Source: a virus
Lineage: Duplodnaviria > Caudoviricetes
Direction: 5' to 3' (one strand)
DNA: 64,000 nucleotides
IMG/VR virus record: IMGVR_UViG_3300028833_000067
Span: 32,001-96,000 of that record
The position numbers and the translations under genes were made by a program. The notes under the pieces were generated by a model that searched no databases, was not told the DNA's origin, and saw nothing but the letters and a program-made list of their open reading frames with translations. Below are positions 1 to 44,044 of the stretch, in pieces (the stretch's first letter is position 1; each line of letters starts with the position of its first letter).

Positions 1-3000
1 GTAGTAGGACTATTTGGGTCTTGTGTATCTTTCTTATAATAGACATAATATAGTTCCTTTAATGAACCTTTAGCACTAGTTGGACTTTTAATAGTAGAAA
101 CACCATTTTTATTATAATAATTAATATAGTAATGATATATAATTTGTCCCTATGGGCAATATTTCTGCTCTTGAGTAATTACATATTTGTTTTTAATATT
201 GGAAGGATATGTGGTTGATTTAGCATTATCTTTAAAAATATCAATCTAATCTGTTACACCCTTTGCAGAAGTGGGCGCGCTAATTGGAGTATCACTAGTA
301 TAATATGTATAATAACTACCAGTTTTATTTCGCTTAAACAAACCTTTTACCTTATCTAAATTGCCATATTCATCATAAACAAAAATGCCGCCTGTTATTT
401 CACTACTATTAAAGAAACTTGCGCTTTCAGCAGAAATAACCGCGTCTATAGTTTTACCAGCCATATCCTTTATATCCGCTTTATCTTTTCCTGTGATATT
501 ATTTGAAGAAGGATAAGTAGTATTACTTTTATACTTACTAATTTCCCAAGCTGTATAATATTTATAATCCTTTGACATATTATCTACATAAGGAAAATAA
601 GTAGTCCATTGATTTATTTCATCAGTAGTATAAATTTTAGTCTCATTATTTTTTACCTTATTATAGGTTAAAACCTTTGGCGAACCAGTTGTTAAATAGT
701 ATAACTTACGTAAATTGGTAATATAATCTGCCGTAGTATTAGCATGGTATCCATATTTATGAGCATTATATTCAATTGTAGTAAAGCCATTTCGTTGTTG
801 ATGGGTAATTTTTTTAATAATATAAAATCCATTAGATAATTTATTATCAGTCTTAATTTCTGCCCACTCATATTTATTGCCTTTTTTTATTCCAATATAT
901 AAAGTAATTGTCGAGATATCTTTGTTTTCATCATCTTTTATAAGCTAATAAACCTCTCCTACCATTACATTATTATTGTTTAATGATGTTTTTTTATCTA
1001 TGGTTCCCTTATATTCTAGTATAGGAACCCATATCGTGCCAGAAACAAGTTCCTACATCTTATTATCGCCCGGCACAGAATTATTAGTATTATTTATATA
1101 ATTACTTTCATCTATGGCGCTAAAACGAATTCCATATTGTACAGTATCAAAGCTGGTAGTATGATATTCCTTATATAATTTTAAAGTCTCAGGCTATACT
1201 CCCATACACTTCTCATTCTAATTAAACTACACATAATATGTATCATACTTAGAATTAGAAGAATCTTTCATTAAAGCCATAACTTCAGGATTACGATAAT
1301 CTCGTGTAATAAAACCATCACTATCGCCATCGGCACTATCAAGCCCCGTAATAAAAGCCATATTTTCTGTAATTCTTTCTTCATCTAATTTAATTGACTC
1401 TTCTAGAACTTTATTCTTAGCTTTTACTTCTACTAAGACATCACTAAGATTCTTCTAAGCATTCTATAATGGCTCTAATTGGCTATTTAATTTACGCATC
1501 GTTTTTTCGTATTCTGAAATCTCATTATACTATTCCTCACTAATAGTCCCAATATCATGTAAGTAATCAAAATTCATTACATAATCTTCTTTAGTCTTAT
1601 TAGCTTCACTATCCATAATATTAATAGTTCCAGTATATAAATCTGGCGCGTCTACCGAACGCACAAACATTTTAGTAGAAATATCAGTGCTATCCATTTC
1701 TCTTGTAATTTTAGACGCAGAATTAGGATACATTAAAGTTTCTACATTTTCTCTTTCCTTTAAGAAATTATTATAGAATACAATAATGCGCCCAATTATA
1801 TTATAATTCCTATCATATAGATATTCATAGCGGCAAAAAACTTCAAATTTTTCCGCTAAATCCTAAGTTATATTATATAAGTTGCTTTCTTTTAAATCAA
1901 CTACGCGAGTCATTTCCTATAATTGAGAATAAGACGCGGGCTAACAATCATCTGTCCAGCTGTCAACATAACTTTCTACATAAATTTTATCTTCAACTAC
2001 CTCACTAGTATTAAATAAACTATCATGAGATATACGAATGTCATAATACCACTCTGTAGGATTCAATTTATTAGAATCTATTATTCCATTTGTCTTTGGA
2101 ACTGGTTTAATACGCGCACCATTCGCATAGTCTTCCATCCAATACTATAAATTACATATAGGCTATGCTGCAGCTTTCGCTTCTGCATCAGCATAAGTTT
2201 TATCAGTACCAACTTCAGCTTCCTGCCATTCATTATAAGCATTGTAAAATCCTTCAGCGGTTAAAGCACGTTTATAACCAACTTTTCCTAATTCATGAAA
2301 AGCCAATCCTTCGCAACTAACAGTACATATTAAATTATCCTATTCATGACTTTCTTCGACTTTAGTAATAAGAAATTCAAATACATTTGAAGTAAAATTC
2401 TTATAATAATTCAAATCGTCTGAAGAGAATATATCCCCTGTTGCTTTTAATTGTTCATATTCGTCTGCTAATACATGTAACTATTGAGCCCAAACTGCTT
2501 CTTTTTCAATGGTAGTATCCGTATCATATTTAGCACGAATAATCAAACCCTATGTATCCTTTAATAACAAATCTTCAATATTAGTAGGGTCTTTTTGTAC
2601 TAGCGTATCAACATATGCTGCTAATCCGCTCGTATCTATCGTCCCATTTGAACTCATAGTATATAATAAGTTCTATCCATTTTGAGGTATTGGTGTAAGA
2701 GATACAATCATATTTCCAATAGTATAGGTAGTAGTTAATAAAGTGAAATAACTGCCGTCCGCATTATGAATAATAGGACGATTCCATAAATCTACATTTC
2801 CATTTGCTGTATTAAAATATTCAATAATTTTAATTTTCTATTGAACGTTTGCGTCTTTTTCAGCCCATTTATTAAAAATAACTTTTACTTTCCGCATACT
2901 AGTTAAAATATTTCTATTTATTTCTTGCGTTTCTCCCAACTCATCCTAATAGTTTGAACCATAGTAAATATTATGTGTACTATACCAATTCGGATTTTCT

Positions 3001-3242
3001 ACTTTTTTCCCATTTATAAATAAATACATAGGTACTTCAAAAGTAAAATTTGATGTACCATCAATATTCAATTCCATTTTTGCGTTTTGAATCTATCCAG
3101 TAGCCCTTGCCTGCGACCAAACGATCGCAGGCAAGTTCTCACCGGAAATAGAAATTGGATCACCACTTTTTAAAGTGGCGATATAATTATCTTGAATTGT
3201 CCATACAGATACTTCATAGTTTCTAAATTTTTTCCAATCCAT
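1..3242 (-). CDS. Tal-like/baseplate hub tail protein, >1080 aa, truncated at window edge (TAG=Gln)
   Basis: ATG at 3242 with AAGGAGG RBS. Track fragments 246-578, 1530-1733 and 1941-2138 are in one frame and each ends at TAG. N-terminus includes MELNIDGTSNFTFEVP. Lies directly after the Dit-like gene. Confidence 0.7.
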
Positions 3243-3266
3243 AGATACTTCCTCCTTTTATCTCCA

Positions 3267-5243
3267 TTATAAGTACATATATTTATATTCTAATTGTATA
3301 TGAGAAATAGGGGCTGGCAGATTGTGGAATAGACAATGTGAATAAGTTTTAGTTATTTCATTTGTTTCTTCCCATCTGGATACTCTACCTTCACTATTAA
3401 ATTCATTTTGGTCTTCTATATATAGCCAATTGGAGCGTAGCATATCTCCTACATTTTCTGTATGAGTTTTAAAATATTTTTCTTTATCTGCGCTTGTAGC
3501 GCCATCGCGTAGAACGTTATTCTCTATATTATTATCCTTTGCTACAATTTTATCAATTATATTAGTAGTACTACTATCCGATTGCCAATACTAAAACTCA
3601 CCAGTTGCTATTCCTCTTTCTGCATCAAAAGTAAAGCTCATTGAAGAACTGGGAACATTATCCCATCCGCTTATGCCATCATCCGTTGTATGGCCATTAA
3701 AGAATCTACGTAATAATTTTCTAAAAGCATATACACCAGTCCCAGCAAACTATCCATTTTCTTTAAAATATTTATAATATTTTGTTAAGGCTAAATTTGG
3801 ATTGTTATCTATATTATTGCTGTCAGATTTATTATTCTTCTATAAAAACTCCATAATAGAAATAGTAAATGCTCTAACCGCAGGATGCCTAATCTAATCA
3901 CGTAGTGTATCAACAAAATCTCGCCAATTTGGTTTATCGTCATCAGTCATTTTCCCAACTGCCTTAATCAGCGAGAGAGCCTTATTCCAACTAGTAATTA
4001 TATTAGGAGTAGTAAAATCAAATTCTTTAGTATGCTAACTCATAATTGTAATTGTAGAATAATCTTTAGCATTACTATTCCCTTTCTCAATATTAGCAAT
4101 TGAATTAGCAATTGTATTAATAGGGTTAACTTCATTATTCTCTACACTAATCTAAATAGGTACTGTAAACTTCAAAATAGTAGGACTTGGCGCATTGCCG
4201 CCATAGAAAAAGTAATATTTATTATCAGAACCCGCGTATAATTCGCCTTCTATTGCATATTGATTTGTTTCATATTCTAATGATGCCCCAGCAATGCGGC
4301 CTTGTGCAACAGCAACATGTGGTTTGTTTTCTTCAATTCGTGCGCCTATCCAATATTGTATTTCTCCATTTTCTTCTGTTATAAAATGTCCCAAAGTATT
4401 ATCTTTCCAGTTGCTAGGACGAGTACTGCCATAATTCTACGCAATTAAAGAATAAGCAACACTACTCTGTACTTGTGCAAACTATGTACCACCAAAATGC
4501 ATAGTCGAAGATACTAAATCCTATATTGGAACAGTATCTTCATAAGCAATTTTTAATGCTTCAGTTAAGCTATCAGAAGGCTATCCGCCTATCTCAAAAC
4601 CCGAAGGCAATGTAATAAAACCAGTTTCTTTATCACGAGTAAATAAATTACTTTTACCATACCAAAATGAGGAATCTGAGACAAAATCTAAATTAATAAA
4701 TCCTCGATAAGTAGTTGTACTTGTATTGAAACTCTAGCCCCCTAATTGGACTTGAATTTTTTTCTCAAACGGCATAAGATTATCTAATTCCGGCGGCGCC
4801 GATACTCGCGCCATAATAGCACGATTAGGATGCTCTGCTAAAATCAATTCACGCGTAACTCCACCGCGGAACCAGTGTAAAAATCTATCTAATTGCCGCT
4901 AATCTAAATCATCAGATACGAGTTTTAAACTTAAAGTGAAAGGAGAGAAGTGAGTTCCATGATAATACTGCCCATCCATTATATCATAGTCAGTAGTTAA
5001 ATCTTGAAATTCTGAATATCCATTACGAGAAATTCCATCTCCATCACTACAAGCAATTAAATCAAAATCTTCTATCTTTTTTCCGCCAAAAGAAAAGCTT
5101 ATAAAGGAGCGCTGACGCGCGGGGAGGAGAACCTCCCCGCGATGCGTCACCTAATAAACCTAAGTATGTCTAACTGCTTCATTTATAATATTTGATGTAC
5201 TAACACCATTTAAACTCCCATAATCTGCGTATATTGTTGCCAT
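3267..5243 (-). CDS. Distal tail (Dit)-like protein, 658 aa (TAG=Gln)
   Basis: ATG at 5243 with AGGAGG, TAA at 3267. Fragments 4152-4394 and 4899-5150 are in frame. N-terminus SFISFSFGGKKIEDFDL...DGQYYHG, C-terminus EYKYMYL. Immediately downstream of the TMP. Confidence 0.75.
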
Positions 5244-5248: not shown

Positions 5249-8200
5249 TTACCTCCTTACGCTATTGTTAGCTTTTGTCTTGGAAGCAATGCGAAGCATT
5301 TCATCCATTACTGTACGAGCTGCCTAGCGTGAATCATAGTCATTAGCAAGCTTATCAATATGAAGATTAACTTCTGCTTTATCAATTTGCATTGTATTAG
5401 AATTATTAGAAATTGAGTCATAAGCATTTGCTGGTAAACCTTGATAAGCCTCGTTGTAGGATTTGAGTAGATTTATTAAGGAATTAGGACGGTTGCTAAG
5501 GATGTTTTCACGAAGGATACGAGTTTGGACGGGGTTGAGGACTGCTTCTGGTTGACCTGTTTCGCCTATTAGAGCATTGGTAGGTTTATCTATTAATCCA
5601 CCAGATCCCATTACCATCATTTTTCTTGTCGTCAATCTACCTGGTTTTGTGGTTGTAGCAATGTCTGTCGGCTTTATAAGAGCTTTACCAAATGTATCTT
5701 CATTACGTTCATAGTTGCAAATTTTGCATCTTGTACCGTTCCAAACATGAGGTTTTTTATCTTTACTTCCTTTACTACCATCAGAAAAAGTAATAATTTT
5801 CCAATGATACTATTCATCCTTTCCATAAGACTTACCGTCCCATTTTCCTGCGCCCTTGCTCTTCTTACTCTTACCGCTACCTTTACCTTTATCGCTATCT
5901 TTACCTTTATCACCGGTCTTTTTACCATCGTCTTTACCAGGATCAATTTTAATATCTCCAGCTACTTTTTTCCTAATTGCGGCGACATCGCCCGGAATTC
6001 CAGCTCCCTCATCTCTGAAAAGAGCCCATTGCTAAGCTTTAAATATTGTCTAATATAAAGCTTCTTCACTAGCAACTGGTGATTTATCCCAATAGCTAGA
6101 ATCATTTTCATGAATATATCTAGCAATTTCCTAAGGACTTCTACTCATAATATCAGTAACTTCAGCCCAAAGTAATCCATGTTTTTTCTAATACTCTAAT
6201 ATTTCTGTCTCTAATTGAATCTAAGCTTCTAATTTCTCAATCTATTTATCACTCGCGGCTTGAATAGCATCAATCTATTCTTGCTGCTTATCGAAGTATA
6301 AGGAACGTTCCTAATCACTAATCTAATCATTTAGACTTGCGATTTCAGCCGCGGAGCCACCAGAACGAACTAATATATCGCGCTTATTCCGCAATCTATC
6401 TAATTCTTGCTATGAATCAGCTAACTAATACATATTTTGTTCTTTCTGTAATACATCCGTAAGTCCCTTAATATACTTCTCATTTGAACTTGAAATTGCT
6501 TCTTTAGTATCAGTTAATGCGTCAATCGCGCGCTGACGAGTATCAACAATCGCATTATAAATGCTTGTTTCAAGCTCCATCTAATTATCGCGCATTTCCT
6601 TAATTAACTCATTCTATTGCTATTCAAGTTCTTGCTACTTCTTATAGCCTTCCTCAACGGAATCATGTAATGACTACATTTCTTCCTTATCGGTATCAAT
6701 CTTCTCCCAGAAAGCCTTGACCATTGAACTGAAATCTTTACCATCAATTTCTTTACCACTATTATCATACTTCATAAATTCCTTATATTTAGGATTTAAA
6801 GCGATAATAGCTTTATATTGTTCTTCATCAGTCATATTAGGCTTTCCAGTATTCGGATCGCGGCTAGCAATCTTAGAAAGTTTCTCCATCGCGCCAGGTT
6901 TATACTTAAGTTGACCATTCTCATCAAAAGTATATAAAGCAGTAAATGGATTATTTCGAGAGTTCATCTCCGCACGACGCTTATTAAAGTATGCTTCCTA
7001 ACTTTCAGTTAAATCTTTCTAAACAGAAAGCTATTCTTGTAATGCCTCTAAGCTGTCCTTCTGGCTATGGAAGTAATCTCTACCATTTGGCGCCCATTCA
7101 GAGCTTATGCGGTTGCGGTAAGCTTCGTAGTAAGCAATATCCTTTTCTAGCTAAGCGATTCGCTGTAACCAGTTATACCACTTTTCTAGGTCTCTTAGGA
7201 ATTGGCCACCGCCGCCTCCACCGCCGCCACCGCCGCCTTTGCCCATTAAGTCCTCAACGCTTAATTGAGCTAAGGAAGCCCATTGTGCGCGTAATTGCTT
7301 TAATGCGGCTAATGCGGCTGCAGCACTTGCCATTGCAGGCCCGCCATGTATACTACCTTTAGCAAATGCTACTGCATTTTGTTCATTAGTAATTGCGTGA
7401 CCCCGACCCTTAGATGTACCCTTTTCAAGTAAGGATTTTGTTTGTAGATGATTAAATACTATTGCATCATCTGCTAGATTAACCATCTCTGGACCGTTTT
7501 GTCCTGCGACAAAGTAACGGCCGTTGGAAACCACAAGCTCGGGGCCGAGTTCACCCATTAAAGTGCCCTTTGCATTAGCAAGGCCAATATTGCCGGTTGC
7601 CTAAGTTCCTTCAGGAGTACTGCCGCTAGGTATAGTCTTTGGCAGCCCACTTGTATCTGCAATTAACTTAACTTTTGCAGTAAATGGACCAACAAGAGCA
7701 TCTAAAATAGGTTGTACACTTGGTGAAGCTAATGTTACTTTTATATCTTTTAATCCACTTTCAATTGTTGTTTTTGCATCCTTAGCAAGTTCAGGCTTAA
7801 CTGTAACCTAAGCTTCATCAGTAATAAATCTAAATCCTGATATTGAACTAACTTTAGTTCCATCTGGTAATGACCAATCAATATCACCTGTAATAGAAAC
7901 ATGCTACTATAATTGACTAACCTCGCTTCGAAGTGTCTAAAATACCTTTTGCGCTGCATTATTTAACGCATTTAAGTGTGTCGTTATAGAGCCCTATGCC
8001 TATCCAAAACGTTTTTCTAATTCAGAAATTGCGCCACTTGCTCTTGCTACCATTGCCTATATAGTTGCTGGCAAACTAGAACTAGAAATGCTTGTTTCAA
8101 TATCCTTTATAGTTGGCGCTGTTTCTACCATCTAAATTTCTTGCTTAATTGGAGGAAGAGTGGTTTCTGAGAGTTCTGAAACTTTCTATTCAGTCTGCTT

Positions 8201-11200
8201 ACTAAATTTTTCCCAAGGAGGAGTCTACTAAGGTGTATAAAAATCTGATATAGTCTATGGTTTGTATAAATCCTATTTTGGAGGATTTTCAACAGAAGGT
8301 TCATTTGGCGGTTTTACTCCCGTATCTTCATCCTCTACTATAATATTCTTAGCTTTAACCTTAATATCAATTGGGTCTTTTACTTCGAGAGCATCGGCAT
8401 CGAGAGAAATATCGGCGCCTTCAGTAACTACCTTTACTGCTGATGCCGTTGCTTCAACAGTATTCTCTAAAGTTGGGGACTATTTAGCTAATTTTGCTTC
8501 GAATGCTGCAATCTCCTCATCTGTCATGCCTGCTGCATGTGCTTCATCAACATTCACTTTACCATCTACAACATGAATGTCAACTTCAACTTCGGCTTCA
8601 CCTTTACCTTTAATAACTTTCTTTTTAATAGTAAAGGTTTTACCAGAATTACCATTCTCAAGATCCTTTCCAAGTATTGTGTCTAAATAAGCCTATAACC
8701 CGGATAAGCTATCTGAACTATGAACAGTCTTGCCGTCATTATATGTATATTTTGTAGTACCTGCAGTAATATCAATTTCTGCTTCAATTGTATAGCCACC
8801 TGAACGGAACTGCACTGTACGTTTTGCACCGGCATTCTTACCAGAAATATCTTCAAAACCTTCCATAGAAGAAGCCTCAATATATGCCTATGCTGCAGCT
8901 TGTGCACTTTCAGTACTAATATCAAAAGATTGGCCATCTAATTTCAAGGTAGTTTTAATCGTACCATCTTTTTCAATTTGAATTTCAATCTTTGCTTTTT
9001 CAGAAAGAGTAATAATACGACGTCCTGTAGTAGCATCACCTTTTTCCCATTTTCCATTATCTTTTGTATCAAGCTAATTAGCAATTTTCATATAACTATA
9101 CATGGAATCATAATTATCACCAAAATCATGTCCATCATAAACATAATGTGGAGTACCATCATTATAATAACTATATGTTAAGTCTAATCCAATTGCTCTA
9201 GTAACTTGAACAGAATACTCTTTTCCTTTATCTGTAAATGTATAAGTTCCAGTTTCAGTTTGACGTCCTTCTTTTGCTATAAGGCCCATAATAAATTCTT
9301 TAGAACCAGTTCTTTTATTATAAGTATATTGTGGTTCTCCATTATTATCTAAAGAAACCTCAATATCAATACCACTAATAGTAGTCTTACCTTTAATGAC
9401 CTGTTTGCCGTCGTTATTAAGAGCAACTTCAAAATCAAGACCTTTATCTTTATACATTGCAGCTTCGCCCATTAATGCAAGCAATTCCTTATTATTTTTT
9501 CCTTCAAATTTTTTGCCATCAAAATATCCAGTGTAGCCAGTTTTATCATCACCAGATATTACAAATTCATTTGAAGCAATACCAATTAAAGTTCGTAATT
9601 TAATTAATTCTTTACGCTGAATTGTACGTCCTTCATCCTTTTTTGTTTTATATTTATCTAATGCATCCTATATAAATGTTGTATACGCGGCCTAATCCTT
9701 AGCATATTTATTACTACCAAGATAAGTATCTACAGCTTTACGTGCATCTTCATCAGTATAGTCGATTTCAATCGCAGTTTCGCCGACAAATGTTAAGGTA
9801 CGTACTAACTTACCATCTTCCACTACATTAAAGACAAATTCAGATAAATCAACACCGCTCTATTTAAGAACTTTCTGCACACTAGCCCCAATATCATTTA
9901 AATCATAATCCCCAGAAATAGCAGCTTGATACAAACCATTTAACATAGTCTAATATGCTTCCTATGCTTTCTTTTTATCATCATCAGTTAAACCACCAAA
10001 TAAATTATCAAACATTTCCGTTTTTGTTTGGTTGTCACCTAGCATCTCCATCATAGAACGCATTTGACCGTTAAAGTTTATTTGTGTATTTTCAAAACGT
10101 TCTTTTAGTTCATCATTGCCTCTAACATACTCTAATAATTTCTGCCTTGCTTTATCAAAACCATCTGTAAATTCAGTAATTTGATCTAAAACTTCACCAT
10201 TTTCATCAGAGGTAACAAAGATATCTCCCAAATCAATTTGCGTATCCTCACCAGTAATTTCACCTAATTGTTCCATTGCCACAATAATTTCTAACATAGC
10301 AATTAAACCATCAAGCATTTTTACTTGTGATTTGGCCATCGCTTGAATGCCAGAAGTAACACTACTTTGCATCGCGGCGGTGCCAGATTGAATATCAATT
10401 GCGCTATTACGTAAATTAACTTTAAGTTCACCAGTATCAATAGCAGTTAGAGAATCGCAACCTGCTTGAATAGCTTCTGAAGCTGATTTAAGAGAACCGT
10501 CAAACTTAAGCGCACCTAATTGAATTGGCCCGCCAAGCGCGGCAATATTGTTTATTTCGGTGGCAATATTGTACCAGTCTTCATAATCAATAAATCCCGT
10601 TTTGCCTTTCTTAGTTCCACTACCAGCTTTAAAAGCATCGCGTAGAGTATGTAAAGCCTAAGTCCAATTCTTTGCATAATTTAATGGATTCTTTTGTGCA
10701 GCTGGAATTTCATTTGACATAAAGTTAAATGAATTATCTTCGGAGGTAGAACGTACTGCTAAAATCTCTTGAGCTACAGAAAGTTCAGCCTAATATTGCT
10801 ATAAGCGTGCATCAGATACTTCTCTATCTGCACTCTTAATTGCATTAGATACATCTGCAATATGAGCAATTAAGGCTGAAGTAGAAGCAAAGTTTTCATT
10901 TGTTTGTTCTAAAGAATCTTTTAATTTATCAAATACTAGGGTTGCTTGCAAACCATCAACCTGTTTAAGTGCATTATACAATGCAATTGCCGATTGTTCT
11001 GATAATTTTAATCCTTCTGCAGTTTTAGTAAAATCTATATTATTAACGCCTAAATCTTTAGCTTTAGATACTAAATCAGAAGCTTCTACATTAGTCAATC
11101 CACCTTCGATACCACTTGTAATAGCATCAACATATGCTTTAAGAATATTTTTAATTGCATCTGCTAATTCTTGGAATCCATCTTTTAAATCTAATTCTGC

Positions 11201-14200
11201 ACTCGCGGCAGCATCTTTTATAGAATTTGCAATTTCTAATAAATTAGCATTATCACTTAATTTTAATATTCCATTAATAATTTGTGCCCCAAATGGAATT
11301 AATTTGGTATTTAAATCATATAGAGCTGTAGACTGATGCGTTGAACCAGTTTCCCAATTATTTAATTGATTATCTATATCTGTAGCTACATGTGTTACAA
11401 TTTTTTTAGATAACGCATGACTAAAATCACTAAGATTAATCCAATCTCCAGGTTTAGCTTCTTCTAATCCTTTAATTTCTTCTGTAATGCTTTTTTCAGT
11501 TTTATGATTCAATTCAATTAAACCGTCATTAAATGTTTTATACGCACTTAAATATTCTTCAGAATTAAATTCCCAGCCCATACCTTCAGCAAAACGATTA
11601 AAGTCGCGAATACGCATTTTATTACCGCCCATGGCTTCAATAACTTTATCGGTAGTTAGCTATTCCATTAATTCATCAGTCATTTCAATACCAGCATTAG
11701 ATAATATTTCTGCAAATGCAGTATAAGTCATACCAGAAGCATTACCCAGTGCATCAATTGCTGCTTGTTCTGTAGCATTACCATTCTATGTTTCTAAAAT
11801 CTTTGCCTTAGCTTCATTTACTGCTGCTAATGTGGCTTCTCCAGATTTTAGTAACATATCATAATATTTTTGATATACAGAACTAATTTCTTCTAAAGTC
11901 GCAGTAATTACAGCAGTAGTATCATCAATTTCAATATGATATTTTCCGGCTTCATCAACTGCATCAAAAATTGCTTTTGCTTGGCCGCTAATTAAACCGC
12001 CAACACCATAACTTAATTGATCAAATGCATTTTCTAACTAACTAACTTCTGAACGGTATGCTGCTTCAACATCGGATGCTGTTAATTCTTTTCTTTGTGC
12101 TTTTGCGACTGCTCTCATTACTTCAACCGCAGCCGCACCGCCCTATTTAAGCTAATTAATATAATATTCTGATATTTCATCAGTAGTTGCACGAGATGCC
12201 TCATCTGCTGCTCTTCTCATCTCTGCTGGATGAATCTTCTCTGCTTCCTTAGCATCAATGTATGCCTTTCTTGCTTGTTGAAATACTTCATCAGAAGATT
12301 TTAAATAAGTTACTAAAGCATTTTTTAATGTTTTATAAGCCTCTCCATCATTTGATTTATTTTCTGCATCTAAGAAAGCATTAATATCAATATTTTCGGC
12401 TAATTTTTTCTAAACATTATCATTAACATATTTATTTAATTCTTGAGAATCAAGTAAGCCAAGATTTACAAGTTCTTGTCCCTGTGCTTGTACATAAGCT
12501 TGTAATACTTGAGGGTCTAATGTCCAAGCATCTAATATATCATTGTAGTTAAATGCATTATCTAAAGAAATACCAGTTAAATCTTTATATTCCTTTAAAA
12601 ACTTCTACATATCTGCAGTGTTGGTAGTGCCGCTGATAGTATAATTTACAGCAGAAGTTAAATTACTCATATTAGCATCCATAATAGATGCAATTTCTTC
12701 TCCAAATAGCTGATTAATATCTTGGCCCATGCCCTTCATTGCTGCTCGTAAGCTACTAACATTTAATTTCTATTTTCCAGTTACATCTTTAGTAATAAAT
12801 TTATGTAAATCAATTCCTTCAAATTGTGTATTAAAAGCAGCGATTTGCTCATTAGTAATATTAGTATAATTAGAAAGAACATCTTGTAATGCCTTCATTG
12901 ACTTATATTTTTTAGTATCTTCTAAATTATCAATTAATGCTTGTAATGAATTTACTGCTTCTTTATTAGATGGGGATGTTCTTGCTAATTCTTCACGCAG
13001 TTTCTATACGGCTGTATCTCCAGCAATAAATTGTTTGGTATAATCATCCCAGCGATAGCCAAGACTTTCCATAAAACTATCAGTATTTTCTACAGTACGA
13101 TGTAAGGCACTTTGTAATGTCTATGCTGAAGAATATGCAACATTCTCAGCAATTACACCTTTCCATGCTTCATTCTAATTAAATTTAGTTTTCCAAGTAG
13201 CAACTGCAGAGCGTATTGCCGTTGCTTCTTGAGGATTAGATTTAACCCAATTTTCATCAGCTAATTTAGATTCTAAGAGTGTAATATAACCATTAAGTTC
13301 TTTTTCAGTTTGGACTAAAATCGAATCTTCAGTTATACCTAATAAATCTTTAATTTCACTAATATTAATCCTGTCGCCTACTTTTGCACCACTTAAACTA
13401 GAAATCTAACTAGCAGCAGCTTTATCTAAATCTAAATCATTAGCATTGGAGATAAGACTATCAATATAAGCGCGACGGTATTTTTCTTGCGCTGCATGAC
13501 TTAATTTGTCATATTCAATACCAACGCCCTTTAAGAAGGTAATAAAACTATCCCAATCTACAATAGTAGTCTTACCAAAAATATCAGTAGAGAATACCTG
13601 ACTGCTGAGTAGTTTTAATTTCTTAAACTTATCCTCTTTCCATTTACCTGTGCTTTCATCAAAATATTCATCTAATTGAAGACCCATATCACTAAAGGCA
13701 GATTCAATATTACTAAAGTCTAATTGTGAACCCGCAGATAATAAAGTATCTCCAGCTTTCTACTTTTTATAATGTGCAGTAATAAGTTCACCATAGGATT
13801 TATTCCGTTCTGCAAGTGTTAATAAATTATCTTTATTTTTCTGATATAGTGCACGCGCCGCGGCAACATAATCTTGTCCAGCATCTAGTACACCATCTGT
13901 TGCCTTAAGGTCTATCTCTTCTGCTTCACTTAATAAAGCAATGGTAGTATCAGATAGCGCTTTTCCACCGCCTTCAAGTACTTCAGTAATAGCAGTAGCG
14001 ATTTGATCTGAACGAGCCTTACTTTGAGCACCTTTAGATGCCGCGTCCGCGGCTTGACGAGCAGCCTTACGATTACGAGCATCAGCTTCTTTATCTTTAT
14101 CACCTGCTGTAACTGCAGCCTCAATTTCTGCATCTAAGCTATCAAGAGAACCATAAATCTTATTAAGATATGCTTCACGTACTTGTTGCCAAGTATATGA

Positions 14201-17200
14201 AACATCTTCTTTATATTTTCTAACAATCTTACCACTCTCATCAGTAGTTTTAACACTAAAATCATCTAATTCTAGCGCAAGAGAATCTATCAACTTTTGA
14301 TTAGTTCCTGTGAAATCACTACCAGTAGATAATTTATTCCAATCAATTGCAGAATATAACTAATTTTTCTTATTACTCTAATATTCTTTTAGTAGAGTAT
14401 CTGCTGCAATAGCACTTTCATCATTCGCTTTTGCATGAGCTTCTAAAAATGTAAAAAAGTTATCTAAAGTTTTTTCCTTATATGTATCATCGGTCATAAA
14501 TTCTTCAGTCAAGCCTTCATAAACTAATGATAATTGTTCATTATCAGTTCCAATAACTGAATGAATATCAGCCATTATTTCATCAGCATAAGCATACTAA
14601 TTTCCTTTATGCTATGACATATAAGTATTTTTAAACTTAGCTAAATTATATTGTCCTTCTTTTTCTTGTGCATCTAAAATTGCTTTTACGCCAGCATCAT
14701 TAACATCAATACCTCTACCTCTTAATATTGTTTCGAAATAATTTCTATCGGTATAATTCGTGGCATTTTCTGAATCACTAATACGACTACCAATTATACC
14801 CATCATATTCTAAGTATTCTAAGTAGTACGACCTGTTAAACCACTGGTTCTTAATGCAGAAGTATAAATTTTATTTCCATTTTCATCAATACTAGTTGTA
14901 GTAACCTATTCAGTATAAATTTTAGCGGTATCAGCTAACTACTCTGCAGATGCGGCCATTTGCTATTCTTTTGCTTCAATAGCTTTCTATAAACCTTCAG
15001 CATTATAAATATATTTACCAAGAGCTGCATCATATGTAAATATATCATCAAAACTATCAATTTCAGAAAATACTGCACTAAGTTTGTCAAAACTCTCAAT
15101 AGCTTTATCTAAAGTTAATCCTGATTTATTAGTAGTTAAAATACTATCTATATCTTTAGCCGCAGTTGTTAACTAAGTAGTTAATTCCTATGCTAAAGTA
15201 TTAATATTGAAAACTAAATTCTCTGCCGCGCTATTAAGAGATACGACTAAATCTCCAATATAACCACTATCGGTGGCTATTCCTCGATCATTAGCATATT
15301 TTAAAATAGCATCTCGTGCTGTTGTAATAGAATTATAGCTATCAAATTTAATAGAAGTAATAGTGCTAAATAAATCATTTTGTACCTAATCATCTGTAAT
15401 ACCTTTTAAAACATTAAAAATATTATATAATTCTGTTAATCTACTGGTTGCTAATTGAGTGTATCCTTTTTCTGCTAAGTCATTAATACCTATTAACTAA
15501 TCAGTAAAATAATCAGAATATTTAGAAATAATACCTTCGCCTTGACCAAGAGCATAGGCAATATCTAAAGCATAATTACCCTATTCAGGATGTTCTCCAT
15601 TAATATCACCTTCAAGATATTTACCAGGAGTATCATACCATCCTATTTTTTCAAGGCCCTCCATGTCTTTATTTAATTTATGAGCTATTTTACCATCCTT
15701 ATCATAAGCATAAATAGTTTTAAGAATTCGTTCTCGATTATTTTTATTACTTTCAATAAACTAATCTATAATAGCATAATATACTTCTGAATTATCCTCT
15801 TCTGTTATTCCAAGAGATGTAGCAATGTCCTCTCCACTTAGATATTCTGTAAAATCTAATGACTCTAAAGTTTCTCTTTGAGACTCAGATAAAGAACCAA
15901 TCCAATCTAATAGAGTCTACGATAACTATTCAATTTCATGAGTATATTCATCATCATTTTTATATTGCCAGTCAGAAACACTAGCATACCCATGTTCCAT
16001 TGTAGCTTTTCGTTCCGCAGCCTGATACATTAATGAAGTATAAATACCTTTGCTACCTATATTATTAATTATTGATGAAGATAAATCTCCCCGTAATGGT
16101 GCAGCACTTAACAAAGCCTCAGAAGTCAATGCCTTACTCGCGGATGCAATTAATGCATTTTTACTACTTTTTAATTCTTTAATAACACCCTATACTTTAT
16201 TAAGTGCAACATTTAATTCTTTGGTATCAGGAGCTTCGTCGCCCCATTCAAAATAATCAGCCGCACTAGTAGCTCCTCCAAAAGCGTCTGGATGAGATTT
16301 AATTAAATTATCTAAAGTCTCTACTGTTTCAGTATAATTATATCGAATTCCTTGTGCGATACGCTCATTATATTGTGTTACTTGGCTACGATTAAAATCA
16401 GTACCGCCATATTCAATGGTAATACCCTGACCAGGACTGAAAGTAGTGCCTTTTTCGCCTGCGGTATTCTGTGCAATCATTTTTCCCCAATCTAATACTT
16501 CATCAACTGTCCATACTACAGTATTATCAAAAGTACCATTCTCTGCAGTATGACGAGCCATAATATCAGCATATCTTTGCCCTTCTTCAGTTGACATATC
16601 AAATTGATATCCACCAGAGATCATAGCGGACATTGCTCTTTCATATAAATCTTTAAAATTTCTATCATAATCAACCGTGGTAGTAGCCCCTGACGCACCA
16701 AGAAAAAGATCAATAATATCAATGCCAGTACCAGCATAATTTGTGGATTCACTATACTGAGATGCAGTCAACGTTTCTGCTCCACCATACTAATTTTGTA
16801 CTTTCCATCCTTGTTCATCGCTATTTGTTTCATAATATAAACTAACCGCACGATCGGTATGTGAAGCCGATTCTGTTGCACTATTTAATTCAGTCTATAA
16901 CTACTCTGCATAATCTAACTATTCATTAACAGTTTTCATATTAGCGATAGCCGCTTGTCGCGCTGTACGAGCAGCCTCCGTACGAGTCTATGCTAAATAT
17001 GTTTCAGCATCTTCTAAAGCAATAATAGCATTACCAGCCTCGTCATATGCAGAAACTAAATTCGGATAAGCATCTGCCATTGTATTCATAGCATCTTTAT
17101 ATGCTTGCATATCCTCGGTGGAATTATACATGGCTTTTTTTAAAGCTTTTAAATTATCAATCTATGAAGAAACATCTGTAACCTTGCTTTGAGCTTTTTG

Positions 17201-20200
17201 ATTTTCTTCTGTTTTTTCGGCCGCTTCTTCTTTTAATTTCTCAATTTTTTCTAATGTAGTAACTTGTAATCCATCTATAATTGCACCTATACCGCCCGCA
17301 AGAAAGCCACCAAACGCACCAATCGCTGCGCCCCATGGGCCAAATGCCAGACCCATTGAAGCTCCAGTGCCTGCCATAGAAATACCATTGCCAAGACCTG
17401 TATATATTTTTGATTTTTCTACGCCATTACCGCCAATACCTTGCCATCCTAAAATATTATCACCTAATTGATCTTTATGTCCTGCGCCTGCTGCAGTAAT
17501 CATTGTACCAAAAATACGTGCAGCTCCCGAGGCAACACCAATGCCTTTCATTACATTTAAAGAATATTTTCCACCGATATCAGTAGCTCCTCTCGCGGCA
17601 CCAGCCTTCTCTCTATCAGCAGACGCGGCATCTTTTGCGGCAGGTACTTTTTCTTGATCTGCTGTCTATGCACCTATCGCAGATGGGATTTTATTCTAAT
17701 CAGCGGTCGCTGCTCCTTCAGCAGGAACAATTTTAGATTGATCGGACACGGCAGCCTCTTCAGCTGCGGGTACTTTATTTTGATCTGCCTATGCAGCCCC
17801 TTCAGCTGGTGGGACTTTATTCTAATCCGCAACCGCAGCTTCTTCTGCAGGAGGGACTTTATTTTGATCTGCCTATGCAGCTTCTTCCGCAGGGAGAATT
17901 TTTTGCTAATCTGCATTTGCAGCCACCTCGGCTGATGGAACTTTATTTTGATCTGCCTATGCAGCTTCTTCTGCAGGAGGAACTTTATTTTTATCTGCCT
18001 GTGCAGCTTCATTTGCTGCAGCCGCGGCTTCCTATAATGCTGTATATAAATCATCAAATCCACTAGGCGTTTCAGCCAAACTAGCTAAAAAACGATCTAA
18101 TGCATTAAAATTAGCATTGCCCCCATTTACTCCCATCTCTGCGAGTAAGGATTGACGTATACTAGCATCACCTAAACTAGGATAATTACTTAAAATGTTT
18201 TCTAAAACATATGACGAACTCTAACCAGAAGTTCCAGTTAAGAAATTAGTCATAGCTCCAATATTATTAATTGGTACTACGGCTGCAGCAGGATTTGTCA
18301 CTGCAGTCGCGGACATAGCCATGCCCATATTAGCTGCATGTGTTCCATTAATTACTCCCATTGCTGCATCATATTCAGATGTATTGGGTTTAATATTAAT
18401 TATCTTATCTAATGGGGCCTAAATATCTTTAATTTTTTGTTCATATTCTTGATTTTCTATGGTAATTTTAGCTTTTCTCTCTGTTAGCCAATCTTTACCT
18501 ATTCCTAATAGGCTTTTGGTACCAGTGCCTAATCCAATAATATTCATTAATGTAGTAAGAACGCCAGATGTACCAAGTTTACCAATTGTGGTTATAATAC
18601 GAGTTAACCACTCATAGGCGCCCTTTAAATTATTTTCTATATGTAAATCTAAATATAACTATGAAAAAGCATTTTTTAATTGATTCGCTTTAGATTCAAG
18701 AGAATCCATTGTTTTTGCTGTTTGCACTATGCTAGTATTTTCTGCATTATTAGCAGTATCTATCGCGCGACTTAATTCATCATAGTTAGATACCAAAGCA
18801 ATAAAACGAGATTGCTATCTATTACCAGCCATAATTGTAGCAATATAACGTTGTGTATTATTATCTAATGAATCCCATTTTGCAGCTAATTCCATAATAA
18901 CATCATCAAAATCACGGAATTGACCACTTGCATCTTTAATAGAAATTCCAACAGATTTTAATGCGGTATCAACTTTATTAAATGCCACTTCTTCTCCATC
19001 GACATTAATTAAACTACTAGGAGATGCTTTCATTTCACCATAACGAGAAATAATAGATTTTAAAGCAGAACCAATATTTTGAGCAGATTCACGAGTAGTC
19101 TGAATCATAACGCTCATAAATGCAGAAGTACTTTGCAATGACATTCCAACATTCGCAGCAGAAGAAGCCGTCTTCTCCATAGCATTTGCTATTTCAGCAG
19201 AACTTACAGCGAATTTTGCTGCCAACGCACTATACGTATCAGTTACTGATTGTGCTTGAGTCATTTCAATTTTAAATGCACGAATAGCTACTGTCATGGC
19301 ATTAGCCGCATCGCTATACTCCATACCAGCAATTTTTGCCATTTTTAATGTCTCAGTAGTCAATTCCATAACTTGAGCCGTTTGTAAACCCTATTGATAG
19401 AAGATTTGAGAAACAGTATATACATCTTTTGTAGCAACACCATATTGCTATGCCGTAGCAGTATATTCACCTATTTTCCCCCATAATTCTTTCTATGACA
19501 TATTGGTAACAACTGCAATATTAGTTATATTCTTATCAAGTTCTTTTATATTATTAAAAGCATTTCGTACTGCCTATGTTACCTTACGAACAATAGCATA
19601 GATACCAATATATCGAGTAATAAAATTAGAAATACCCTACATTTTTCCGATTGCATCATCTAATGATTGTAATCGTGCTTTTCCTGCAGCAACTGCCGCA
19701 TTTAAATTATTAATCTCTGCTGTAGCGGCAGTAAATAAACCAGATAACTAAGGTGACCTTGCAACAGCATTAGTTAAAGCATCCTAATATTCTCTTAATT
19801 TCTATTGAGGTTCTTTTAATGCTTCAGCTATCTCATGTGCTTTTGCGGCAATTTCCTAATTGGGTAAATCAAAAATTTTATTTAAATTAGTATAAGCTCC
19901 TGCACGTGTAGTATCTTTATCAATATCAGCTTTTAATTTATCTACTTCAGCTTTCTAAGAAGCATAACTATTACGTAGCGATTCAATATTGCCTAGATTA
20001 TCGCCAAATAATACTTTTTTAGCTAATCCAGAATCTGTACCCATAGATTTAAGTACATCAGTCCAAGACATTTTAAGTTCAGTGGCTTGTTCTTTAATAC
20101 GTCTACGAATTGCCGTAATATCTTCCTAACTAAAACTAAACTATTCAGTAAGTTTAGATAGAAATGTATTCATTCCATTAAATCCGCCTTTAAATCCCGT

Positions 20201-20932
20201 GAAGCCTTTTTCATCAAAATTTAATGCGTCAGATAATGCTTGCTATACTTCATTTTTATTACCATTTTTATTAATAGCTTTAAACGCCTAACTAAAATAA
20301 TCTAATGCTCCCCACTGAGTAAATGCATTTTGGCCTGCCTAATTTTCATTTAATTGAGATATTTTAGTATTATATTCAGCAGTTTTTAATTCAATTGTCT
20401 AAATAACTCTATTCATGCCAATTTCAATTGCACGATAGAGTTCATCATAGCCCTGCTCAAGCATTTTTGCTGCTTTAGCAGGCTCAGCTACGTTTAGATT
20501 AGCTAAAAAATCCTAATTATTAATTAACTTATCTTTCTAAGTACCTTTAAAAGAAATTAAGCTATTTTGTAATTCTTGAATTCTAGCCTATAATGCAGTA
20601 ATCTAGCCACTTACATCATCAGGAATTTTTAAATCAGTAAAAGATAAATTCTTAGCAGTATTAGCAACTTTATTTAATCCCAATTCAACCTAATCAATAT
20701 CTTTCTAAATTGAAGAAAAATCTCCCTGTGTAGTTAAAGCAGTTTTTGCTTTTGCTGCAATCTAATCTAGACGTGTTAAAACCTTTCCTAATTCTTGATC
20801 AATCTTTTTCCCGCCTAATGAATTAGATAAAATATTCTTATCTGCAAACTACTTTAACTAATTCGCTATCTCCTACAAATTCTAAATTTGTATAGATACT
20901 GGAAGTTCAATGCCTTGTGTTGCCATCTCCAT
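5249..20932 (-). CDS. Giant tape measure protein, 5227 aa (TAG=Gln)
   Basis: 14 track fragments share one frame, and a manual scan between them found only TAG, no TAA/TGA. TP901-type TMP core near 18.8-19.6 kb (ELTTETLKMAKIAG...AGNRQQSRFIAL). GExGPE-type motifs near the C-terminus. Alternative start 20926. Confidence 0.9.
17630..18020 (-). repeat. 42-bp (14-aa) tandem repeat inside TMP, about 9 units, consensus AEEAAQADQNKVPP
   Basis: Units read directly at 42-bp spacing. Confidence 0.95.
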
Positions 20933-20955
20933 CTCATCTCCTTTCATCCCATAAT

Positions 20956-20986
20956 AAAAAAAGAGCCACTTTCAAAAGAAAGTGGC
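20956..20986 (-). terminator. Intrinsic terminator upstream of TMP
   Basis: Minus strand GCCACTTTC-TTTT-GAAAGTGGC followed by TCTTTTTTT. Confidence 0.75.
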
Positions 20987-20991: not shown

Positions 20992-21894
20992 TCAAATATC
21001 CCCGTCATCTGGTTCCCCTAAACGAGTTATTTCCATAATTAAATTTTTCTAATCCCCAACTGTTTCTGGCAATCCAATGATATTAAAAGTAGAAACGGTG
21101 GGATCGGCCCTTTCTCCCAGTCGTAAGTTAATATTACTTACAACCCTAACTTTCGGCATATACAAAATATTTGTATAATTTAAACCCTCATTTTCATCCT
21201 TTGAGTAAAACTTTGCTTCAAGCGCGAAAAGACCATTAAAACGTTCTTTTTGCACACTATAAATCAAGGCTTCGTGCTCATATTTATAGTAATAATCAAT
21301 CGTATATTTCCTATTATTTTCTACTGGCTCTTCAAAATTTTTATCCTTGGCTAACATAATGCGCCAATGGTCTGAATCATTAGCATCAACTACACTTATA
21401 TCCTTTCCATAAATTTTATTCTAAATTGTATCCCTATCATAATCAAATATGAATACTTTTTTAATTGGATAATTTACTGGTTTATGCTATAGCTCTACAT
21501 ATGGAAACTCTTTAATTTTTCCTTTAATTTCCTAAGATATAGTATTTTCAGCTAGAATTGATTCTATCATATGTACATACATAGGTTGTCTTTCTTTCTA
21601 TGATAAAACATTCGCGCCAAGTAAAATACTCATACCAACTGAAGACATTACCCCTTCTGTCATCTAAAACTGAACTTCGCCTCGCTCATCCCAAATAATG
21701 CGTGGCATATTTGCCCAGCCGCCGCGCGCGAATACTGGTCTATTTGATTCAGTTAATAATGACATATTCACATTATTAAAATATAGCACTGGTTCGTCTG
21801 CTTCAATATAACGTTCACCAAAATACATTGGCGCTTTCGCGCGAAGAGTTACCTCATAAAGTTCTTTATGGCCAAAATTTTGATCTAATATCAT
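20992..21894 (-). CDS. Tail-tube paralogue (minor tail protein), 300 aa (TAG=Gln)
   Basis: Joins fragments 21049-21357 and 21664-21894. GGWANMPRIIWD and ERADPTVSTF align with GGWGNPKLIQWD and AEGDPSTFEM of the adjacent major tail protein. Confidence 0.75.
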
Positions 21895-21910: not shown

Positions 21911-21943
21911 AAAAAAATAAAGGGCTTCCCGATTGGGAAGCCC
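21911..21943 (-). terminator. Intrinsic terminator after major tail gene
   Basis: GGGCTTCCC-AATC-GGGAAGCCC followed by TTTATTTTTTT on the minus strand. Confidence 0.85.
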
Positions 21944-21955: not shown

Positions 21956-22957
21956 TTAAGGTGTTCCACCTTCGGAAGAACTAGAAGCGGCTAAAGAGCC
22001 ATAGTCATTACCACTCTGAGAAGCAGAAGCTTCATCAAGGTTATAACGAACTAGCTTCATCATTTCATTCTGGCCAGCTTCATTGGTAGAACGAAGTACA
22101 TTTAAAGTCATTTCAAATGTGGAAGGATCGCCTTCTGCCTGTAGGGTAATAGTAACATTGCTCTGTACCTTGGCCTTGTTAATGATGAACTGGAATGGTT
22201 CATCCTTACCGGTCTTTTCAGAACGCATGAATGTATCACCAACTACACGATAGGTGCCAGGGAAAGTATCTGGACTAATAGTTACTTCAACTGCACTCTC
22301 ATCGGTAGTAGAAGAAGTTACTACATCTTCCCAGAAAATACGAATCTGATCGCCTTCTACTGGGGCAGTTTCTTCATCAATACCAGCGGCAGGATTCTTG
22401 AACTTAATATTGTTAAGAGCTGTCATTACCTTAGCTGCTCCATTTGGATCATCTACTACAATCTGAGTACGAGTACCAGCTGTAGTGCTATTCATACCGC
22501 CGCCTAAGTTAATTAGACGAATTGGATGACCAAATGTGGCCTTAGGATATAGTACCTTTTTAGTTAAATGATCTACTGGAGCAGGAATAAGACCATTAGC
22601 TTTAGCTACAACCTGCTCAGTATGACGTACTATAACGGTCTCGCCTTCAACATTAGTCTTTTTAATAGCGCCACCAAGCATAAACCGTAAAGATTCTATA
22701 GACATTAGAGCGTCTTCTAGAGTAATATTGATTTCCTTACCATAGTCCCACTGAATTAGTTTTGGATTTCCCCAACCGCCCTGAGCTGCGGTATTTTCAG
22801 CAGTGGTTTCAATGGTGGAAACTTTTAGGGTATCTAGGAATAGAACGATGTCACCGGCATATACACCAGCGGCAGAGTCATTATCTAGAGCTTCAAAGTA
22901 AACGTTGGCTACTTCTTTTATGCCATACTTATCAAAAATATTAACGTTACTTGCCAT
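21956..22957 (-). CDS. Major tail (tube) protein, 333 aa
   Basis: Intact ORF with no TAG, strong RBS, own terminator, position upstream of TMP. Confidence 0.75.
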   Translation of the reverse strand: MASNVNIFDKYGIKEVANVYFEALDNDSAAGVYAGDIVLFLDTLKVSTIETTAENTAAQGGWGNPKLIQWDYGKEINITLEDALMSIESLRFMLGGAIKKTNVEGETVIVRHTEQVVAKANGLIPAPVDHLTKKVLYPKATFGHPIRLINLGGGMNSTTAGTRTQIVVDDPNGAAKVMTALNNIKFKNPAAGIDEETAPVEGDQIRIFWEDVVTSSTTDESAVEVTISPDTFPGTYRVVGDTFMRSEKTGKDEPFQFIINKAKVQSNVTITLQAEGDPSTFEMTLNVLRSTNEAGQNEMMKLVRYNLDEASASQSGNDYGSLAASSSSEGGTP

Positions 22958-27862: not shown

Positions 27863-27877
27863 AAGTCGCACCTCCCA

Positions 27878-31359: not shown

Positions 31360-31364
31360 AAAAA

Positions 31365-36382: not shown

Positions 36383-36610
36383 AGTGGGGAACCTTCTTTC
36401 ATATAATGTCAAGCGGTGTACCGCTTGCAAGGGTATTCTCTCACTTTGCAAGGGAAAAAACAAGTACAAAAACAGGAAAAAATGACGATTTAATATTTTT
36501 GTAACAATTGTTTAAAAATTCTTAACAATTAAATATCTGTTCAATCGTTTCAATAAAATGTATTATAATGTATTATTATTTGTATTGTCTAAAGCGTACA
36601 AATCTCGGCC

Positions 36611-36725
36611 TGTGGATAACTCGCCTCAGCTTGTGGAAAACTTGTGAATAACTTTTTCCACAACCAAAGTTTTCCACAGCCATGTTTTCCACAAGTTTTC
36701 CACAGGGAAACCGAAGTTATCCACA
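36611..36725. promoter_or_regulatory. Cluster of 8 DnaA-box-like 9-mers (candidate origin or DnaA titration site)
   Basis: TGTGGATAA 36611, TGTGGAAAA 36632, TGTGAATAA 36643, TTTTCCACA 36654/36670/36685/36696, TTATCCACA 36717. AT-rich tract at 36490-36590. Confidence 0.8.
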
Positions 36726-37122: not shown

Positions 37123-37138
37123 GAAAGGAGCTAAAACA

Positions 37139-44042: not shown

Positions 44043-44044
44043 GC

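Follow-up and report, generated by a model that had tools for sequence, protein, structure and literature searches.

An uncultured phage that reads TAG as glutamine probably encodes a tail tape measure protein of about 5,225 residues

Under the standard code (table 11) a 15.7-kb region of the DNA analysed here breaks up into short frames, the longest of which has 277 aa. The window is a stretch of 64,000 nucleotides from a member of the Caudoviricetes (positions 32,001 to 96,000 of IMG/VR record IMGVR_UViG_3300028833_000067). A preliminary description, made from the letters alone, had proposed that the region is a single recoded gene for a tape measure protein (TMP). Does this locus encode one giant protein, and would that protein measure the tail? 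Our analysis indicates that the ORF encodes the tape measure protein of an uncultured 177-kb phage with a non-contractile tail, one that reads TAG as glutamine in its late genes (probability about 0.87).

Translation with table 15 gives one ORF on the minus strand at 5249..20947, which has 5,232 aa from the first ATG and a mass of about 0.57 MDa if 110 Da is taken for each residue. It contains 125 TAG, 142 CAA and 26 CAG codons. No internal TAA or TGA was found among its 5,232 codons, and the sole stop is the terminal TAA at 5249-5251; the 15.7-kb frame free of TAA and TGA that had been claimed is thereby borne out. On the same strand, 8.7% of the codons in the two remaining frames are one or other of these triplets, so the chance of 5,232 codons without either is about 1e-206. 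The length given earlier, 5,227 aa, corresponds to the second in-frame ATG at 20932, and the strand, which had not been named, is the minus strand. A third ATG at 20926 gives 5,225 aa, and it is there (residue 8) that the N-termini of homologues align. An AAAGGAG Shine-Dalgarno sequence is located 5 and 11 nt upstream of the ATGs at 20932 and 20926, and one of these two is the likely start.

Alignments support the decoding of TAG as glutamine. In the terminase large subunit (TerL), four of the five TAGs align with Gln of standard-code TerLs, and at two sites Gln is present in all five homologues. Of the TMP's TAGs, 90 were aligned with relatives, where 21 of them correspond to TAG and 17 to CAA or CAG. 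No suppressor tRNA turned up in the genome with ARAGORN at default settings or with the Rfam tRNA scan, and ARAGORN at lowered thresholds returned noise only. In its intron mode ARAGORN reported a tRNA(CUA) at about 140,729-140,991 of the genome, interrupted by an insert of 175 nt. Against the group I intron family RF00028 the insert scores 36.5 bits (E 1.5e-7), which falls short of the gathering score (50). The phage-encoded tRNA(CUA) expected of code-15 phages is found here as this intron-split gene. Another mark of such phages, recoding that is concentrated in the late and structural genes and spares the early ones, is also present: by per-gene TAG share, early-region genes have no TAG and late neighbours use it at a rate like that of the TMP. 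The proposed recoding is upheld by these alignments and this tRNA gene, as is the expectation that standard-code annotation would miss the gene. A public protein library holds a 132-aa and a 57-aa fragment of it, both 100% identical, and no full-length copy.

Along the protein, a TP901-type core close to the N-terminus is followed by a hydrophobic segment rich in Gly, a long middle of modular make-up and a C-terminal part that is conserved (Table 1). Within the core, PF10145 matches aa 498-705 (E 1.8e-28, 100.2 bits against a cut-off of 33.2), TIGR01760 matches with E 7e-29 (100.9 bits against 28.8), and among the TMP PHROGs phrog_4211 matches with E 7e-54. In a hydropathy scan the sole TM-like stretch, aa 1206-1227, falls within the family-conserved Gly-rich segment. 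The gene order is terminase, portal, capsid-like gene, two phrog_2729 genes, TMP, Dit-like gene and giant tail gene, which places the ORF in the tail module, and this order is kept in two IMG/VR loci (L002 and L003). The 333-aa phrog_2729 protein is a candidate for the major tail tube protein; the phrog_2729 gene pair also precedes the TMP in L003. Downstream, the 658-aa gene matches PF05709 with E 0.0037, below the Pfam cut-off, and its position is kept in L002 and L003. PHROG and Pfam searches gave no family match for the 2,642-aa gene. No contractile sheath family was found in the 98%-complete genome.

Table 1. Features of the tape measure gene and its surroundings (window positions)
Feature	Position	Strand	Basis
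TP901-type TMP core, aa 456-791	18575..19582	-	PF10145, TIGR01760, phrog_4211
Seven tandem 42-nt (14-aa) units, AAQADQNKVPPAEE type	17712..18010	-	TRF, translation, coverage profile
Gly-rich hydrophobic segment, aa ~1110-1230	17258..17620	-	hydropathy scan, family consensus (alignments A1-A3)
Middle region, aa 2440-3639, short helices and beta-hairpins (predicted)	10031..13630	-	AlphaFold2
Lineage-specific beta-rich region, aa 3640-4400	7748..10030	-	library search, coverage of giant homologues
Family-invariant C-terminal beta motif (TLMGELGPELVV...IVFNHLQT), aa ~4462-4510	7418..7564	-	invariant columns in A1 and A2
Poly-Gly run, 11-12 Gly, family-conserved	7206..7237	-	scan of sequence, alignment
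Long helices, aa ~4580-4985 (predicted)	5993..7210	-	AlphaFold2, pLDDT about 90
Terminase large subunit	31365-33149	-	in-frame TAG
Portal	29815-31368	-	in-frame TAG
333-aa virion protein (phrog_2729)	21956..22957	-	PHROG match; no TAG, Gln by CAG only
300-aa phrog_2729 paralogue, 6 TAG, directly upstream of TMP	20992..21894	-	PHROG match
Strong terminator-like hairpin, 9 bp (7 GC), after 333-aa gene	21922..21943	-	sequence
Terminator-like hairpin and T-run, between upstream gene and TMP start	20965..20986	-	sequence
658-aa gene just downstream of TMP, Dit-like	3267..5243	-	weak Sipho_tail match
3' part of 2,642-aa gene cut by the window edge, candidate tail tip or fibre protein	3..3242	-

This TMP is not unique; it is one of hundreds of giants, and public protein collections contain hundreds of its full-length relatives. 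At least 811 protein clusters of at least 2,877 aa share its core. The survey of TMP length in relatives that the preliminary description had proposed gives 3,248-7,257 aa for the 120 best of these clusters, 13 of them longer than the protein studied here. One HSP with 37% identity spans residues 12-4980 in the alignment with a homologue of 5,178 aa (P0008), and several others are collinear. Because the 5,178-aa protein aligns collinearly over about 5,000 residues, the TMP gene is one unit, and by its sequence the locus encodes a single predicted product of about 5,225 aa. Domain matches, gene order and these full-length homologues all agree with the tape measure identity proposed earlier. Among the metagenomic homologues (P0002-P0121) the core is 73-83% identical and the remainder 30-50%, with variable segments at 800-1200, 1400-3200 and 3600-4400; the tandem-repeat segment also varies among relatives. 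Scanning IMG/VR with aa 2300-2900 gave no relative, and with aa 3200-3620 it gave two, L002 and L003. Both have TAG recoding and synteny in common with this phage, the TMP of L003 having 4,248 aa with 124 TAG and that of L002 at least 4,962 aa with 151 TAG. For aa 3640-4400, a HMMER search of 1.84 billion representative proteins gave 9 matches; most are short fragments called in the standard code, and two derive from this TMP gene itself. Of the 120 best giant homologues, 5-9 cover the region. P0125, an Ig-repeat protein whose match to this region looks compositional, was rejected as a relative. A literature search found no paper describing this uncultured giant-TMP family.

AlphaFold2 models were obtained for two segments covering 2,032 of the 5,232 residues, the middle region being folded on a 17-sequence alignment. 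The model of aa 2440-3639 (mean pLDDT 72; 63% helix, 8% strand) has 51 short helices with a median of 14 residues, 27 strands and about a dozen beta-hairpins, and conserved Gly and Thr residues of the alignment coincide with these hairpins. The second, C-terminal segment is 52% helix and includes one helix of 102 residues; in the models aa ~4580-4985 appears to be the most coiled-coil-like part of the folded segments, and the strands of the C-terminal beta motif are predicted at modest confidence. A tape measure protein is expected to be mostly helical with a membrane-active segment that is hydrophobic or rich in Gly, and the helix content of both folded segments and the TM-like stretch agree with this. 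When both models were compared with PDB and BFVD by Foldseek, the only matches were generic ones to helical repeats or coiled coils (TM about 0.1), and a Chou-Fasman-type propensity profile was uninformative. BLAST of the TMP against itself revealed no internal repeats. Module HMMs gave weak cross-matches only (best aa 2777-2854 against 1956-2020, 16 bits), and internal repetition is at most suggested.

Comparison with known phages places the protein in a wider setting. The phAss-1 group (OQ749652) consists of TAG-recoded human-gut siphoviruses (Babkin et al. 2023, PMC10607447), which like this phage use code 15 in late genes and have a very long, TAG-rich TMP. The PF10145 cores are 30% identical (E 1e-40) and the TerL proteins 34% identical. 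However, the phAss-1 TMPs have 3,149-3,209 aa and only the core in common with this TMP, the genome is 136 kb against 177 kb, and three ordinary suppressor tRNA genes stand against the single, intron-split one found here. Members of the proposed genus Phassvirus are 80-86% identical in nucleotide sequence and have synteny in common; membership of this phage is ruled out by its 30-34% protein identity in TMP core and TerL. In GenBank, the region of the 3,150-aa TMP of phAss-1 is annotated with nothing but small CDS fragments. The TMP of Thermus phages P23-45 and P74-26 (gp96, 5,002 aa) is of equal size class, with an implied tail of the order of 0.8-1 micrometre, and no sequence relationship to it was detected. 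Those phages keep to the standard code. Their TMP includes a virion RNA polymerase, at the N-terminus, and a metallopeptidase, neither of which was found here. Among phages of Bacillota, orf166 of Lactococcus phage phiL47 (949 group) belongs to the same TMP core family (25% identity, E 7e-25). The terminases of 949-group, SPbeta-like, E3 and Enterococcus H1-type siphoviruses are 30-36% identical to that of this phage, and the order of structural genes is the same. All of them combine a large genome with a long flexible tail. Unlike this phage, they are standard-code phages; their TMPs have 1,500-3,300 aa, with similarity confined to the core.

The tail of phiL47 measures 480 nm and that of phage 949 measures 500 nm (PMC3888941). 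With a TMP of 3,275 aa, phiL47 has 0.147 nm of tail per residue, and by this scaling, taken from a phage that shares just the TMP core with the present protein, the tail would reach up to about 0.77 micrometre (766 nm). The ~780 nm of the preliminary description is likewise a prediction. It could be shorter, as the middle is modelled as short helices and beta-hairpins and not as one long coil. Part of the TMP may fold back or be cargo, which would give fewer nm per residue. The earlier caveat on parts that are not ruler thus stands, and it is sharpened by the predicted fold of the middle region.

In an alternative that we consider improbable, yet by far the strongest of those weighed, the protein is a TMP of which only a part acts as ruler: the modular middle and the beta-rich region 3640-4400 would be folded or ejected cargo and the tail would be much shorter than 0.77 micrometre. 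The short helices and strands of the middle with their conserved hairpin residues favour this, though monomer AlphaFold models often fold extended helices back on themselves. Family alignments contain many conserved blocks along the full length of the TMP, more than a passive spacer needs. Some relatives have SH3, PG-binding, choline-binding or Hint/intein domains inside the TMP, and the P23-45 TMP includes a working RNA polymerase (PMC10770324). In the protein studied here, however, searches of Pfam, PHROGs and NCBIfam with three pieces and phmmer against PDB sequences found no enzyme or binding domain, and scans for DxDGD, HExxH and CxxC gave nothing pointing to cargo, DxDGD and HExxH being absent. 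The PDB match 6eld falls on a Gly-rich low-complexity stretch and was rejected. A TMP-fused virion RNA polymerase of the P23-45 gp96 type was also rejected: there is no D.DGD anywhere and no RNAP family match, and the core begins at about residue 456, so that there is no long N-terminal extension. Moreover, the full TMP lengths of both phiL47 and P23-45 (for the latter, PMC10034513) fit about 0.15-0.17 nm per residue.

It is very unlikely that the frame is not one protein, with some TAGs acting as stops or being partially suppressed to yield several shorter or mostly truncated products. Each of the 125 TAGs does need read-through, the first 500 codons have the highest density of TAG (26 against 14 CAA+CAG), and the TMP of Geobacillus phage E3 is annotated as two genes. 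On the other hand TAGs are spread over the entire ORF, where no gap between them exceeds 287 codons, neighbouring late genes use TAG at a similar rate, and TAG is exchanged with CAA or CAG among relatives. The homologues' frames are open and collinear, and the genes surrounding the TMP all end in TAA or TGA. Still harder to credit is a dead gene, or a chimera made in assembly. This contig was assembled from a metagenome, is linear and lacks terminal repeats, which would leave room for a chimera; the improbability of such an open frame argues against both, the architecture and synteny are repeated on independent contigs, and the genome is rated 98% complete.

For a single tape measure protein of this size, a speculative reading of its build is that the giant TMPs of this uncultured clade (3.2-7.3 kaa) are strings of a dozen or more conserved modules of about 90 residues, each a helix/beta-hairpin unit, and not plain coiled-coil rulers. 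We regard this as possible and rather doubtful. Tail length would in that case increase module by module, giving this phage about 0.77 micrometre and members of more than 7,000 aa tails of more than 1 micrometre. If true, the latter would exceed P74-26, the current record holder.

From what is known of lambda gpH, TP901-1 and T5 pb2, a few copies of the TMP would lie extended in the lumen of the tail tube with the C-terminus at the tip, and tube subunits would polymerise round them until the end of the protein is reached. As tube growth would stop there, gene length would set tail length. At infection the TMP would be ejected, and its hydrophobic segment could help form a DNA conduit across the envelope. 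With 125 TAG codons, full-length TMP could not be made before the intron-split tRNA(CUA) is spliced and charged, which would tie its synthesis to the late phase. Owing to the two upstream terminator-like hairpins, the TMP may be made in far smaller amounts than the tube protein.

Few dimensions of a virion can be read from a gene, and the length of its tail is among them. Standard-code gene calling shreds genes such as this one, and phage annotation and protein clustering therefore need code-15 calls. As its members range naturally over 3.2-7.3 kaa, the family could serve to test the reach of the ruler rule, and it also allows a test of the modular build of very long TMPs. To our knowledge, tails of 0.5-1 micrometre are otherwise documented for a few Thermus phages only. 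Judging from this TMP and its relatives, tails of that length may be common among gut or rumen phages of Bacillota-type lineage.

Translation with table 15, in which TAG is read as Gln, gives a single open reading frame at 5249..20947 on the minus strand, coding for 5,232 aa as counted from the first ATG. The frame contains 125 TAG, 142 CAA and 26 CAG codons and terminates with TAA, and a scan of it found no internal TAA or TGA, as the preliminary description had held. In the strand's other two frames, TAA and TGA together account for 8.7% of codons; therefore the chance of a run of 5,232 codons free of both is about 1e-206. The start proposed earlier (20932, giving 5,227 aa) matches the second in-frame ATG, but the first ATG gives the longer product and homologues of this tail tape measure protein (TMP) begin at the position of the third, 20926. 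The ATGs at 20932 and 20926 are preceded, at a distance of 5 and 11 nt respectively, by the sequence AAAGGAG. From the homologue starts and this spacing, the length of the TMP is thus 5,225-5,232 aa, depending on the start ATG. Under table 11, the standard code, the region is split into pieces of no more than 277 aa. A large protein library holds fragments of 132 and 57 aa, each 100% identical to the TMP, and no full-length copy of it, which is direct evidence that the gene was broken up by standard-code calling, an outcome that had been foreseen. The same is seen in phAss-1, a TAG-recoded human-gut siphovirus, whose GenBank record shows only small CDS fragments over its 3,150-aa TMP ORF.

The tape measure identity was borne out by PF10145 (aa 498-705, E 1.8e-28, 100 bits against a cut-off of 33), TIGR01760 tape_meas_TP901 (aa 456-791, E 7e-29), 11 tape-measure-annotated PHROG families matching aa ~230-1230, and the gene order. 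The other ~4,000 residues have no match in Pfam, PHROG, NCBIfam or PDB sequences. The genome is one IMG/VR record of 176,887 bp, rated 98% complete, in which a search for a sheath family found none. Relatives of its terminase (30-36% identity) are large Bacillota siphoviruses, namely Geobacillus E3, Enterococcus H1/EF1/VRE9, Alicyclobacillus KKP_3916, SPbeta-like Bacillus phages, phages of the Lactococcus 949 group and phAss-1. The pair of phrog_2729 virion proteins (~300 aa each) sits at the usual place of the tail chaperones and is also found in a relative (L003:641-2584). A second very large ORF (3,220 aa, 21 TAG) lies outside the window at genome 109760-119422 (+), window-relative 77760-87422, and the ~11 kb at 36500-48000 hold plus-strand ORFs that are all small and in standard code.

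Genes, TMP regions and hairpins (aa, residues of the TMP; negative positions and those beyond 64,000 are window-relative and lie elsewhere in the genome)
Feature	Position	Strand	Remarks
Terminase large subunit (TerL)	31365-33149	-	first in listed gene order
Portal	29815-31368	-	after terminase
Capsid-like gene, phrog_4088	26762-27871	-	after portal; CAG-preferring
phrog_2729 paralogue, 333 aa	21956-22957	-	after capsid-like gene; 0 TAG; CAG-preferring
Terminator-like hairpin	21922-21943	-	strong; 3' of the 333-aa gene
phrog_2729 paralogue, 300 aa	20992-21894	-	immediately before TMP; 6 TAG
Terminator-like hairpin	20965-20986	-	strong; directly 5' of TMP
658-aa gene		-	next after TMP; weak Sipho_tail (Dit) match
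2,642-aa gene		-	after 658-aa gene; extends beyond window
CAG-preferring gene	49375-50358
CAG-preferring gene	-26218..-25316
CAG-preferring gene	124857-126380
CAG-preferring gene	130694-131911
TMP N-terminal part	~430 aa		coiled-coil-like, very TAG-rich
TP901-type core	aa 456-791
Seven tandem 14-aa units	aa ~980-1078
Gly-rich hydrophobic segment	aa ~1110-1230		conserved; contains the TMP's only TM-like stretch
Beta-rich region	aa 3640-4400		almost no relatives
C-terminal part	aa 4401-5232		invariant beta motif GELGPELVV...IVFNHLQT, poly-Gly run
Disordered stretch	within aa 4401-5232		Lys/Gly/Asp-rich

An AlphaFold2 model of aa 2440-3639 (17-sequence alignment, mean pLDDT 72) contains 51 helices with a median length of 14 residues, and its 27 short strands pair into about a dozen hairpins, at which nearly invariant Gly/Thr residues are found. 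Long helices are confidently predicted at aa ~4580-4985, one of them with 102 residues. Module HMMs of the TMP gave only weak cross-matches and fold searches with the models only generic helical ones; searches of the TMP for domains and motifs revealed neither an enzyme nor an intein, nor any wall-binding domain or RNA-polymerase motif.

The reading of TAG as Gln is supported by alignments. TerL has five TAGs, of which four fall on Gln positions of standard-code homologues, and at two of these four sites Gln is present in 5/5 homologues. Among 90 TAG positions of the TMP alignable to the related recoded IMG/VR phages L002 and L003, 21 face TAG and 17 face CAA/CAG, while 26 TAGs of those TMPs face CAA/CAG here. 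In the TMP, TAG accounts for 43% of the Gln-type codons, a share similar to that in neighbouring late genes (32-69%, portal lowest); early-region genes have 0 TAG. Among the 11-13 tRNAs given by default scans there is no CUA anticodon, because the only tRNA that has one is interrupted by a 175-nt insert; it was found by ARAGORN in intron mode outside the window (genome ~140,729-140,991; L009:330-592). The group-I-like insert adjoins the anticodon and scores 36.5 bits (E 1.5e-7) against the Rfam group I intron model, below the gathering score. This split tRNA points to a TAG-decoding route in the phage itself. Some genes, likely capsid and tube proteins among them, encode Gln by 10-14 CAG, 0-1 CAA and 0 TAG, and their late neighbours (TAG 32-69%) use almost no CAG. 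These CAG-preferring genes may be the most highly expressed or independent of the suppressor tRNA. The highest TAG share in the genome (28/35 Gln-type codons, 80%) is that of a helicase-like ORF at 60496-62163 (+) with weak DEAD/Helicase_C matches. Because of its TAG load, synthesis of the TMP would depend on the suppressor tRNA. The positions of the two hairpins, which flank the 300-aa paralogue, fit strong expression of the tube gene and, after it, attenuated expression of the TMP.

The TMP of the cultured Lactococcus 949-group phage phiL47 (3,275 aa) shares the core (E 7e-25), and the 480 nm tail of phiL47 (PMC3888941) gives 0.147 nm per residue. By this ratio the tail of the present phage would be ~766 nm long, or ~784 nm at 0.15 nm per residue; the middle of short helices and hairpins and the beta-rich insert leave room for a lower value. 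PMC10034513 describes Thermus phage P74-26 as the holder of the longest tail known, almost 1 micrometre.

A survey of TMP lengths in relatives, proposed in the preliminary description, was made by searching the core (aa 430-900) against library proteins of 2,877-9,156 aa at E <= 1e-3, which gave at least 811 protein clusters. The best 120 of the 811 are 3,248-7,257 aa long (median 4,014): 19 exceed 5,002 aa, 13 are longer than the present TMP and 5 exceed 6,000 aa. P0008 (5,178 aa) aligns to residues 12-4980 in one HSP at 37% identity, and P0004, P0007, P0017 and P0002 are also collinear. Conserved stretches at aa 400-800, 1200-1400, 3200-3600 and 4400-5000 and in the final 100 residues act as anchors, and the intervals vary. 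Synteny around the TMP is repeated in the IMG/VR contigs L002 (TMP at least 4,962 aa, 151 TAG) and L003 (4,248 aa, 124 TAG). Within the TMP of some giant relatives, P0002, P0087, P0034, P0047, P0091 and others, lie Hint/intein domains (PF01079, PF14890, PF07591) or domains of the wall-binding type (SH3_3, SH3_4, PG_binding_1, choline-binding). Judged from sequence, the TMP is one gene product and belongs to a family. Already published are gut phages that are recoded and have TMPs of some 3,150 aa (PMC10607447), the recoding of late genes as a means of regulation (bioRxiv 10.1101/2021.08.26.457843) and the 5,002-aa TMP of Thermus phage P23-45 (PMC10770324); a search of the literature turned up no account of TMPs longer than 5,002 aa or of this family. 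The family is thus populous and apparently unpublished, and the TMP described here is one further member of it.
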